A stretch of DNA of 64,000 nt from Tubiluchus corallicola (taxonomy: Eukaryota > Animalia > Priapulida), in NCBI GenBank assembly GCA_030141605.1, contig JAQGDQ010000220.1:287786-351785 (forward strand). Reading direction: 5' to 3'. The first letter of the stretch is position 1; every line of letters begins with the position of its first letter. A program made the translations under genes and the position numbers. Shown here in pieces: positions 4,363 to 22,103 of this stretch. Under the pieces are notes generated by a model. The model searched no databases and had not been told where the DNA came from. It saw only the letters and a program-made list of their open reading frames with translations.

Positions 4363-4582
4363 ATGAATGTGCCTGGAATTTCGGCCACAGCCGTGACCAA
4401 GCTGGACGGAGTAGTTAAAGGCAACAAATCTAGTCTGATGAACGGTGCTGTGGTGTTTCTTACGTTTAGCAGCGAAGAATTCTTTCGCAAGATCGCCTAT
4501 AAATGTCCCTGTGAGAAGCCAGAAAGTTCCCTCTATGGAGCAAGCTTCATTTTTGGCCCCGCAGTGGCATTGTTCGGATTAG
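4363..4582 (+). CDS. CALHM: CALHM variable exon 1a (NTH-TM1-CPC-TM2)
   Basis: [73 protein letters not shown]+G; donor AG|GTATGT, phase 1. Confidence 0.9.
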
Positions 4583-19500: not shown

Positions 19501-22103
19501 AGAAAAAATAAAAGCAGGAGAGAATAAAAAAGAAAGAGAAAAAATGAAAAAAGACAATAGAAAGAGGAAGAAGAGACACATAGAGATAGACGTCTAGTAC
19601 AACAAATCTTTTTTCATGTCACAAATATAGTCCTGACTATTTCTGTCCTGGTGACCAAAGTCGTGTTACACTTTTAGCAAAATACAAAACGAACGCATAC
19701 TCGATCCTCTTAATCTCTCTCTTACCTTATACCAAGACCATGTCCACTTGTACCTCTGTTTACACTAAATAATCTGCACTGTAGATTTATGGACTTATTT
19801 TGTCTCCATGTCGTTAGAAACAAACTGTTGGTGTCCCCACATGCAAAGAAAGTGCTTGATCAGGGCTGTGGTGCACCAGCAGAGAGTGGGGAAACCACAC
19901 GAGACGGGTGCATATTCTGATTACATTAGAAATCCAGGTTCTGTGACCATATCCTATATAACCACAGATGGGGTTGGGGTATAGGGAGATGGTCGCAGAA
20001 AGTACATAACAAGTAATCATCTCCCTAGCCGTGTGAATGTTTTCGTTAAATCTGGACCTAAAAACATGCTCCGAGGAAAGTACGCTACCCTTAGTGGCCT
20101 CTCTCTCTCTTTGACTGTGTGACCTAAGTACACTAAGAGGAAACAGCACTACCTGTAGTGGTCTGTCTAGCTGTTTATATTAGGTCCGAATCTACAAAGT
20201 ACACTACGAGGAAGCTACATTACCCGTAGTGGTTTCTCTTTCTGGCTGTGTGACTGTTAGGTCCAGATCTAAAAAGTACATTATGAGGATACTACCCGTA
20301 GTGGTCTCTTTGGGCTATATGACTGTTTACACTTGATCGGGATCAAAAAAGTACATTACTTGTAGACAATTTAATGCCTAGTGTAAATAGGGTTATAATG
20401 GTTTTCTAAATTCTTTCCGAGAAGGTTTTACTACTTTTTACTACTAAGACCATATGAACGGTTGCATAGTTGTAGGTCTACATAAAACTTTTGTGCAAAT
20501 GCTTTAGTTTTTTGTCCATTTTGAAGCAAAAAGCAGAAGAGATGGCAAAGGCAAACATCGACAGCTTCTTCAACAAGAGCAGAAGAACAAAACTTGACTG
20601 GGATCACATATCCGTCGTGCCACTGTTAGAGCTGAGCGATTACGAAGAAGAGGTGCCAAGACGAATGAAAAGGAAAGTCGGGCGGAAAGTCATGGCGATA
20701 ATGCCGGGCGTGATAAAAAATCTCGGTATGTGTCGAACAAACTTCATAATTAAAATGATACTATAGGAGATTGTAGCTGTAGGTAAAATATTTAATATAA
20801 TATTTAATGCTGGAATGTGATAGTGCCTGAATTGTCTGTGTGTGTCTTATAATCTAGAACCTAAAAAGGCATAAAATCAAAAAGTCATTTCACAGTTTTG
20901 TTGTGTGTCACGCGCAGTTGCTGTAGGTCAAAGATTAAGTGTATCACAGCAACGCATCTTAACTACAACCGTCACGTGACATGTATGTAAAGCAAAACCG
21001 TCCTCAGCATCAGTTCAGTGATTTCAATTGTTTTACGTAGACTTTACTTAATTATACATTAGTCTCTGCATATATTTACTAGCAGGATCTTGCTTGGGAA
21101 CAAGAAAAAATGAATTAAGTAAGTAAGGTTCTAGCTCTAGCTGTTAGAATTGTTACTATTACGATAGCATGGGCTGCGAGGCGTTGTCACCTGTACACAA
21201 ATACGTTGTCTGGTACACTTAACCGTAGACTTTTTCATCACCAATTGCTGAAACTGTGAAAAGATTTATTGTCTGCTTTGTCTGGGTTTTATAACCTAGA
21301 ACCTAAAAAAAATATCATTCAATCTGCCTAAAATGTGCTTTTAAAGTTGTTCTTATATTTCTCCATTCTCTTTCTGTTACCTAAGTTGTTTAGAAATATT
21401 AACATAAATGTTTGCATGAGTAACTGATTATTTTTAAATTAAAAACTGAAGTAATGGGTAATGGAAAGCATATCTTGTACATGAGAACATAGAAGCAGGC
21501 ATTGGGTATGTTAATGAACAGTGAGCTACTTTGGCAGCTGGGCCAGATTATGACCTCATGGGGCACCTATAACCTATTCCCGGGTCTCCATTTTAAAAGT
21601 TGAAATTTTATTTTAAATTGAATGAATTATTCGGGAATGAAAAGTATAAAAAATATTATATTCATTTTACAAAAAAGTTATGTTTGAAAGTCTTTTGAAA
21701 AGGCCCTCAAACTTGAAGAGTCCTAGATTGCACCCTATACTAGCCTAAGGGATAATTCGGTCCTCTTCTGTAGCCAGCACAGTGTTACCAATTGCTGAGA
21801 TCGTTGTTTTTCATTGTTTTTTCAGCTAAGCCTCCACAGAGTGAACCTTGTTTTACACCCCTCCACAAATGGGCGCTTAAGGAGCGAGATCGCAAGAGAG
21901 CTGAAGAAGAAGCAGAAGAAAACATCCGTCTCCTCTCCGGCGAAGAGGCGCTAGGAGACAGACTTGACACAAAAGAAAATAACAATATCACTGCGGCGGG
22001 AACGACGGACTCCAACATGGTCTATCCAATAATGTTTGCTCCAGGCATGGGAGGAAACAGTGGTCCAAATGTTGGCTTCGCCATGCCACTAAAACCAATG
22101 TAA
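4363..22103 (+). CDS. CALHM: CALHM-family (calcium homeostasis modulator/FAM26) channel gene with three alternative first coding exons and five shared exons
   Basis: Variable exons: 4363-4582, 10681-10891, 12623-12836. Constant exons: 16752-16917, 18232-18359, 19238-19341, 20527-20725, 21826-22103. All introns are GT-AG with compatible phases (1,2,1,0,1), giving 364/361/362-aa products. CALHM motifs: NG..Fx[60 protein letters not shown]. Confidence 0.92.
4685..5300 (-). mobile_element. Decayed CR1-like LINE 3' end with (AAAT)n tail
   Basis: The minus strand reads [16 protein letters not shown]...FKNRL, followed by a 3'UTR and a tail seen on + as (TTTA)n at about 4685-4705. Confidence 0.6.
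6166..9710 (+). mobile_element. Near-full-length degenerate APE-RT non-LTR retrotransposon (CR1/L2 group) between CALHM exons 1a and 1b
   Basis: Motifs occur in order across frameshifts. 2A-like: [93 protein letters not shown]-terminal: CSC..H. Many stops; AATAAA-type end near 9700. Confidence 0.9.
9713..9877. repeat. (TA)n microsatellite blocks
   Basis: Interrupted TA dinucleotide runs. Confidence 0.95.
10681..10891 (+). CDS. CALHM: CALHM variable exon 1b
   Basis: [70 protein letters not shown]+G; donor TG|GTAAGA, phase 1. Confidence 0.9.
10930..12121. repeat. Compound microsatellite: about 900 bp (GA)n followed by (CAG)n(CAA)n and (CTA)n
   Basis: Directly visible. It explains the SL/ER/poly-S ORFs in the track. 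Confidence 0.98.
12623..12836 (+). CDS. CALHM: CALHM variable exon 1c
   Basis: [71 protein letters not shown]+G; donor AG|GTAAAA, phase 1. Confidence 0.9.
13338..14370. mobile_element. Foldback-like element with modular inverted arms
   Basis: The left arm has repeated GGAAAAATGGCACA-type units (13338-13425) followed by TTAGGGTTAAGGTTA. The right arm has the reverse complement TGTGCCATTTTTCCTATTT units (14294-14366). Confidence 0.55.
14868..16060. repeat. About 23-25 bp minisatellite with a 95-bp higher-order repeat
   Basis: Monomer is about TAGACGCACATTCTGTATGTTTT. The marker CAATCCGGTT recurs at 15306, 15401, 15496, 15591, 15686 and 15781. Confidence 0.95.
16752..16917 (+). CDS. CALHM: CALHM constant exon 2 (end of TM2, loop, TM3)
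   Basis: [74 protein letters not shown]. Not present in the supplied ORF track. Confidence 0.92.
16945..17308. repeat. 25-bp minisatellite
   Basis: Degenerate tandem unit GACTAGGACAGATCAACTAGACCA-like, beginning just after the exon 2 donor. Confidence 0.9.
17681..18059 (+). mobile_element. MITE family A, copy 1 (about 380 bp)
   Basis: TIR GCCTTTTCACAGTT...AACTGTGAGAAGGC. Homologous copies at about 20883-21263 (inverted), 39000-39362 and 63492-63783. Confidence 0.8.
18232..18359 (+). CDS. CALHM: CALHM constant exon 3
   Basis: [58 protein letters not shown]. This donor restores the 18-residue GW-to-C spacing seen in CALHMs. Confidence 0.85.
19238..19341 (+). CDS. CALHM: CALHM constant exon 4
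   Basis: [48 protein letters not shown]; start of the C-terminal helix. Confidence 0.88.
20075..20360. repeat. Degenerate about 70-80 bp tandem repeat (about 4 copies)
   Basis: Recurring AAGTACACTA..GAGGA..TACCCGTAGTGGT units. Confidence 0.6.
20527..20725 (+). CDS. CALHM: CALHM constant exon 5
   Basis: [40 protein letters not shown]...VIKNL-G|GTATGT. Confidence 0.88.
20883..21263 (-). mobile_element. MITE family A, copy 2 (inverted relative to copy 1)
   Basis: CAACGCATCTTAACTACAACCGTCAC is the reverse complement of GTGACGGTTGTAGTTAAGATGCGTTG in copy 1. Confidence 0.8.
21826..22103 (+). CDS. CALHM: CALHM terminal exon 6
   Basis: [32 protein letters not shown]...MPLKPM*. Candidate polyA signal AATAAA at 22404. 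Confidence 0.88.

Follow-up and report, generated by a model that had tools for sequence, protein, structure and literature searches.

The 64,000-nt stretch of Tubiluchus corallicola DNA analysed here (the window) contains a gene of the CALHM family in which three intact, anciently duplicated copies of the first coding exon (1a, 1b and 1c) lie before one constant body, exons 2 to 6. The gene is predicted to encode a large-pore, ATP-releasing channel subunit, as judged by its Pfam match, cysteines and gating residues. In the descriptions below, NTH is the N-terminal helix, TM a transmembrane segment, EL an extracellular loop and UTR an untranslated region.

4363..4582, plus strand: variable coding exon 1a, 73 codons and 1 nt (NTH, TM1, EL1, TM2a)
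10681..10891, plus strand: variable coding exon 1b, 70 codons and 1 nt; the longest branch among the three copies
12623..12836, plus strand: variable coding exon 1c, 71 codons and 1 nt; nearest to exon 2
16752..16917, plus strand: constant exon 2 (TM2b, the intracellular loop and TM3, which carries the Trp and, in FIDG, the Asp120/121-equivalent)
18232..18359, plus strand: constant exon 3 (short EL2 with two partner cysteines, start of TM4)
19238..19341, plus strand: constant exon 4 (end of TM4, start of the C-terminal helix)
20527..20725, plus strand: constant exon 5 (C-terminal helix and the region after it)
21826..22103, plus strand: constant exon 6, coding part up to the TAA stop
22104..22430, plus strand: likely 3' UTR with AATAAA at 22404-22409; end approximate

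Results

Three first coding exons and one constant body

Each of the three copies starts with its own ATG and ends at the first base of one shared Gly codon, where a phase-1 GT donor follows (GTATGT, GTAAGA and GTAAAA in 1a, 1b and 1c, respectively). Joined to exons 2-6, each copy gives an open frame that runs to a common stop, and the products are 364 (1a), 361 (1b) and 362 (1c) amino acids (aa) long. These three predicted proteins align end to end with the 363-aa FAM26F-like protein XP_014664842 of Priapulus caudatus, which supports the chosen splice sites. The arrangement of tandem paralogous first coding exons in a single frame and phase, with a single constant set downstream of them in the window, is that of a variable-first-exon cluster.

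The copies align without internal gaps, and identical residues number 41/70 between 1a and 1b, 43/71 between 1a and 1c and 36/70 between 1b and 1c. DNA identity is 56-63%, and the third codon positions of a pair are alike in only 19-27 of about 70 codons. The same codon is used at 19/41 (1a-1b), 18/43 (1a-1c) and 14/36 (1b-1c) of the identical residues, as expected from an earlier sequence-based account of this locus (the original prediction), which had noted that shared residues often use different codons. The exon coordinates, ATGs and phase-1 donors of that account, and its hand counts of 41/70 and 43/71 without internal indels, were reproduced exactly on recomputation. The Pfam profile Ca_hom_mod recognises 1a, 1b, 1c and exon 2 with 52.3, 58.4, 59.8 and 36.5 bits, respectively (cut-off 25), so that 1b scores higher than 1a. 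The best matches of 1c among solved structures are Caenorhabditis elegans CLHM-1, recognised from entry titles, and the human CALHMs.

Profile and similarity searches detected three copies of exon 1 and one copy of exons 2-5; exon 6 was weakly matched. Neither a further copy nor a remnant of exons 2-6 or of the 3' UTR was found in the 64-kb window by tblastn, blastn, nhmmer or a profile search, in which a hidden Markov model (HMM) of 36 sequences was run over all 2,870 six-frame segments of at least 15 aa. The prediction that only one exon 2-6 set exists therefore holds within the window. The spacers between the exons contain the following features.

6088..9352, plus strand: decayed long interspersed nuclear element (LINE) between 1a and 1b, with endonuclease and reverse-transcriptase fragments; limits approximate
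10519..10680, plus strand: candidate 5' leader of 1b; a contig of 196 nt in run X2 (see below) is colinear with it, and it would be exonic if X2 is RNA
10934..12120: simple repeats of AG and of TAC in the gap from 1b to 1c
14869..16030: satellite with 23/95-nt units between 1c and exon 2

The gap of 6,098 nt between 1a and 1b holds the LINE (about 3.3 kb) and a TA run, and that of 1,731 nt between 1b and 1c holds about 1,150 nt of AG/TAC runs. Repeats are thus present as described before, but the gaps do not consist of repeats only: no repeat was detected in the remainder, which includes the candidate promoter and leader regions.

What the variable exon encodes

In the structure of killifish CALHM1, TM2a extends from Tyr48 to Leu70 and TM2 is kinked at Asn71; TM2 packs on TM4' of the neighbouring subunit, and disulfides link EL1 to EL2. 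By comparison with this structure, the exon boundary is placed 4-5 residues ahead of the Asn at the TM2 kink. The variable exon accordingly encodes NTH and TM1, then EL1, which holds two of the four disulfide cysteines, and TM2a almost to its end. The original prediction placed a variable pore on a constant TM2-4 scaffold; NTH and TM1 are variable as proposed, but so are EL1 and nearly all of TM2a. Because TM2 packs on the neighbour's TM4' and TM2a lies in the variable exon, part of the ring interface varies as well. The transmembrane interface sets the ring size of CALHM channels.

The copies do not differ evenly along their length. With segment borders that we set from motifs on the basis of the published structure, the columns invariant across the three copies number 5/17 in NTH and the following linker, 11/19 in TM1, 6/16 in EL1 and 9/16 in TM2a, at nearly equal charge. 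TM1 is the most conserved segment, with an unchanged motif TFSSEE and a TM1 net charge of -2 in all three copies, while NTH with its linker and EL1 are the most variable. As to the expectation that the channels would differ in gate and pore, the sequence differences lie mainly in the N-terminal helix and EL1 and not in TM1. The site of the CALHM gate is unsettled, and the published work covered in the available part of PMC13183375 points to the N-terminal helix and S1.

Residues conserved across the family are largely retained. Of the positions listed in PMC13183375 (CALHM2 numbering), C46, C48, Y56 and P64 are unchanged in 1a, 1b and 1c; the exceptions are F44, which is Y in 1a, and I61, which is L in 1c. 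W117, C130 and C162 of the same list and, in addition, the TM3 Asp are present and are read from exons 2-3, the Asp120/121-equivalent lying in constant exon 2. According to the accessible text of that paper, mutation of such family-wide positions impairs gating in human CALHM1 and CALHM6. The EL2 encoded by exon 3 (18232-18359) bears an N-E-S sequon and is very short. Just 7 residues separate its disulfide cysteines; P. caudatus has the same spacing, and fish CALHM6 has about 34 residues there. The sole fold made, that of the P. caudatus relative, is of low confidence (predicted local distance difference test score, pLDDT, 55; predicted TM-score, pTM, 0.34); with this model, all Foldseek matches listed at E < 0.01 were CALHMs, at TM-scores of about 0.3.

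Selection and age of the copies

The proportion of differing synonymous sites between the copies (pS) is 0.82-0.87 and that of non-synonymous sites (pN) 0.22-0.29 over 66 codons (Fisher p at most 5e-12). Maximum-likelihood estimates among the copies put the non-synonymous rate dN at 0.23-0.33 and the synonymous rate dS above 4; the NG86, LWL85 and YN00 methods gave no value of dS owing to saturation. Purifying selection acted while the exon-1 copies diverged. A dN/dS far below 1 had been expected and was obtained, but the test does not discriminate between the array and orphaned tandem genes, since the divergence could have accrued while the copies belonged to whole genes.

The closest relatives found are the CALHM-like proteins of P. 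caudatus (XP_014664842-5 and XP_014676067), which share 35-38/54 aa in exon 2; the model of one of them, P0003, stops at the same 3' end of exon 2. In exon 1 the copies share 36-42/66 aa with each other and 36-46/66 with P. caudatus. They are as distant from one another as from this species and are therefore old. Trees of the exon of 66-73 aa left undecided whether the three copies form a single clade (p of the approximately unbiased test, p-AU, 0.52 and 0.33), and they do not place the triplication before or after the split from P. caudatus.

The open reading frames (ORFs) of CALHMs of other animals end at the same Gly in 4/20 short aligned proteins, with residues that fit a GT donor. Since they break off at this very Gly, the exon-1 module is older than this lineage. 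An array in another animal was not shown among 90 representative proteins, of which 8 with repeated matches were checked (sources were obtained for 7): one was a mammalian tandem-gene fusion model, two were not CALHMs and five had a loop insertion. The CALHM-like proteins P0027, P0042, P0061, P0078 and P0079 carry a cysteine-bearing EL1 insertion of 25-30 aa after the CPC motif. Metagenome scans for relatives yielded 49 and 342 pattern matches, none of them confirmed, and the ESM Atlas gave no usable match.

Transcription and splicing

Two runs, X1 and X2, were compared with positions 1000-6000 and 9880-10925, the stretches that cover 1a and 1b, at 85% likeness. X1 behaves as low-coverage genomic DNA. 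It covers 1a across the donor (4372-4610) with one differing letter, and it also covers sequence upstream of 1b. There, at 10167-10449, X1 and the window differ by 1 substitution and by 24 letters of gap, an 18-nt deletion among them; this is a sizeable indel polymorphism. X2, which we guess to be RNA, comprises 70,053 records and 13.2 million letters. X2 does not cover 1a and X1 does not cover the coding exon of 1b, and such holes prove nothing. A query with exon 6 and the UTR listed no RNA run, which is neutral on expression.

One X2 contig of 196 nt (depth 54) matches 10519-10539 at 21/21 nt and 10667-10703 at 36/37 nt with the same spacing of 127 nt. Its last 11 letters are in frame and agree with the window at 6/11 (p about 0.05), with a silent Gly change and the replacements F8L, K10I and I11L. 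We interpret the contig as a 1b-type exon, probably transcribed, that belongs to a diverged lineage or to a paralog and whose leader is unspliced over 162 nt or more. In the window, the candidate leader holds two upstream ORFs of 1-2 codons.

The observed/expected (o/e) ratio of CpG in the 400 nt upstream lies at the 93rd percentile of the window for 1a and at the 92nd for 1b. All five acceptors of the constant exons have T-rich tracts.

Neighbouring features

On the minus strand at 454-1209, divergent from the CALHM gene, lies an exon that encodes the N-terminal domain of Treslin/TICRR (Pfam Treslin_N). The highest CpG o/e measured, 1.40, was found near 1250-1650. At about 1540-1930 lies a repeat of high copy number that contains many inverted pieces and reaches a depth of about 3,900 in X1; we take it to be a small non-autonomous transposon. 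Downstream, about 28900-45300 on the minus strand is occupied by a multi-exon helicase gene of HELQ/POLQ type (Pfam POLQ_helical; weak structural matches to POLQ), presumably HELQ, a name we assign from motifs. An AMP-binding enzyme gene with few introns and one open stretch of 324 codons (52902-58573, minus strand; Pfam AMP-binding and AMP-binding_C) presumably belongs with the 4-coumarate-CoA-ligase/luciferase-like acyl-CoA synthetases. Finally, an exon-like open stretch of 125 codons (60864-61241, plus strand) has a weak HEAT-repeat match only.

Discussion

We identified a CALHM gene that carries three divergent versions of its first coding exon and one version of everything downstream. It is probable that these form an array of variable first exons in the manner of UGT1 and GCNT2, each with its own promoter. 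A variable-constant design in the wider sense, in which the copies may also be mutually exclusive internal exons, is likely; both variants would give the same protein outcome. The variable-constant design that was originally proposed is thus the best-supported reading of the locus, but none of the junctions from 4582, 10891 and 12836 to 16752 on which it depends was observed, X1 and X2 having been compared over the stretches of 1a and 1b. Present use of 1a and 1b is argued by their intact starts, frames and donors, by the gating residues that they have kept and by the lack of any downstream-exon remnant in the window. Neither exon shows the signs of a pseudogene, such as disabling lesions or decayed downstream exons.

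Several observations weigh against the array. No junction between exon 1 and exon 2 occurs in X1 or X2 over the stretches of 1a and 1b. The X2 contig is a single record that may be DNA, matches on one side over less than 30 nt and ends 34 nt into the coding sequence; in its source lineage, the 1b-type exon may belong to a whole gene. Exon 1c is without an upstream CpG excess (55th percentile). No alignable motif was found in the flanks or in the 600 nt upstream of 1a, 1b and 1c, where the alignment scores were matched by 55-200 of 200 shuffles; a short shared motif could be missed by this comparison. Exon 1b has 12 private changes against 4 in 1a, a difference that is not significant (p 0.08-0.12). 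In P. caudatus, the CALHM paralogs lie on different contigs with an exon 2 each and are products of whole-gene duplication, which was recent: the pair P0001/P0003 shares 55/66 aa in exon 1 (83% identical). No isoform of the P. caudatus protein with an alternative exon 1 was found in the searches made.

Some of these points would suit another history, in which three whole genes once stood in tandem, 1a and 1b were orphaned by the recent deletion of their exons 2-6, and only 1c is spliced; 1a and 1b would then be intact merely because the time since has been too short for decay. The whole-gene paralogs of P. caudatus, the long branch of 1b and the missing junctions are all compatible with it, and an equally low dN/dS would be expected. 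However, this history needs two clean deletions that removed the 5,352-nt constant span or more, of which no remnant was seen. Both would have to be recent: in simulations that ignored indels, a neutral exon stayed intact with a probability of 0.30-0.36 at 0.1 and of 0.11-0.15 at 0.2 substitutions per site, and the chance that both exons are intact is about 0.11 at 0.1 substitutions per site. The orphaning would thus have to be both recent and clean, and this twice. Moreover, a transcript with an intact donor and promoter upstream of a valid acceptor is normally spliced, so that 1a and 1b would be expected to splice to exon 2 anyway, which leads back to the array. We consider this explanation unlikely.

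There is a smaller chance, about which we are doubtful, that the gene has one promoter and one shared non-coding first exon, for example near the Treslin gene, and that 1a, 1b and 1c are internal exons used in a mutually exclusive way after it. The CpG o/e of 1.40 at 1250-1650 would fit such a promoter, and donor-like sites are present upstream of 1a and 1c. In addition, one P. caudatus protein sequence is represented by at least four RefSeq accessions, which suggests untranslated variants. Against this, donor-like sites upstream are no more frequent than expected by chance (0.48 sites in 300 nt for score 7 and 0.10 for score 8), and the X2 contig is colinear with the window for 162 nt upstream of the 1b start. 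Mutually exclusive exons need a 3' splice site before each copy, and no T-rich acceptor without an upstream ATG was found within 400 nt of any of the three starts; this is a weak negative, since the rule caught only 3/5 known acceptors. The related idea that each copy has a short 5'-UTR intron of its own was dropped, because the upstream donors are at chance and none of score 7 or more lies within 300 nt of 1b. On balance, separate promoters appear likelier than a shared upstream exon.

An assembly error seems more improbable still. Three tandem genes could have lost their exon 2-6 blocks at joins in the LINE, the AG/TAC runs or the satellite, given that every gap contains a repeat and that no X1 or X2 record spans a gap. 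Nevertheless, the window contains no N, copies that are 56-63% identical in DNA would not collapse, and the local sequence is backed by X1 both over the 1a donor and in the region before 1b. Lastly, it is very improbable that 1a and 1b are expressed unspliced as micro-proteins of 73-85 aa (NTH-TM1-TM2a) that regulate or poison the ring. In favour of this, the unspliced frames close after 85 (1a) and 73 aa (1b), and the 1a donor is followed by AATAAA at distances of 137 and 168 nt. Against it, the read-through tails are unrelated, the donor sits at the same codon in all three copies, the exon-1 cysteines pair with exon-3 cysteines in known structures and 1b is followed by AATAAA only after 1,325 nt.

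In an array of variable first exons, transcription would start before each copy of exon 1, and the first donor met would be spliced to the sole exon-2 acceptor downstream. The exon-1 copies in between would be skipped, being without a strong acceptor. Three subunits are predicted that differ in the N-terminal gate, TM1, EL1 and TM2a. These isoforms would be expressed in different cells, and separate control of expression is perhaps the main benefit of the arrangement. They could also co-assemble, because TM3, TM4 and the C-terminal helix are common to them. Most of the difference among them is predicted to concern voltage gating, ATP flux and, perhaps, the size of the ring, and less of it the acidic positions of TM1 and TM3, which are unchanged. 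It is a tentative proposal, which we hold with less than even confidence, that three promoters swap the whole gate module on one scaffold and that the resulting isoforms differ measurably and mix in one ring.

If this interpretation is true, the locus is the first variable-constant array to be described in the CALHM family. Three selected gate modules on an identical scaffold would be a ready-made set of chimeras for the question of the gate. Gene predictors would give one isoform and overlook two. What limits the interest is that the design recurs in many families, that the animal is not a model species and that junction reads are lacking.

Comparison with known systems

A duplicated-first-exon array in CALHMs was not described in the literature searched, mostly without subscription journals and without supplements. 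The terms 'isoform', 'splic' and 'Priapul' do not occur in PMC13183375, and the available parts of PMC11424723 and PMC10769328 contain nothing relevant to such an array. The variable-constant array is apparently undescribed for CALHMs, as had been suggested, but its novelty is smaller than was claimed, given the isoforms of shakB discussed below. The design itself is known from UGT1, GCNT2 and the protocadherins.

As far as the available text of PMC1885805 goes, UGT1, GCNT2, UGT2A and the protocadherin alpha and gamma clusters have the same layout of tandem first coding exons of near-equal length, in one frame, before one constant set, and GCNT2 also has three variable exons. These clusters differ in that they encode vertebrate enzymes or adhesion proteins and that their promoters and splicing are proven; here the gene is that of an invertebrate channel and the layout is read from sequence. 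UGT1 has a conserved upstream motif, according to the same portion of that paper, whereas none is alignable here. We therefore liken the array to these clusters in its working and do not regard it as the same system.

A close functional precedent is the fly innexin gene shakB. Like the CALHMs, its products are four-TM large-pore channels, and the isoforms ShakB(N+16) and ShakB(L) arise from distinct promoters, as given in the accessible part of PMC2663713. They differ from the N-terminus to TM2, share the rest and gate differently (PMC7455501 and PMC12570126, available parts). On the other hand, shakB belongs to the innexin family, forms gap junctions and has a TM arrangement opposite to that of CALHM, and the parts of these papers that were available hold no statement that its alternative exons are tandem duplicates. 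The UNC-7 innexin of C. elegans is also comparable, since isoform-specific N-termini set its voltage dependence and rectification; its variants, whose differences in length and in sequence are confined to the part ahead of TM1, are not paralogous modules of gate, TM1 and TM2a (PMC7455501, available part). Within the CALHM family, C. elegans CLHM-1 and vertebrate CALHM1-6 resemble the present gene in Pfam family, cysteines and gating residues and are its best structural matches, but they diversify as separate genes and heteromers. The CALHM-like proteins of P. caudatus come from two separate genes, each with its own exon 2. If the array is real, CALHM diversity can arise inside a single gene, much like innexin diversity in shakB, and P. 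caudatus has reached the same end by another route, duplication of the whole gene.

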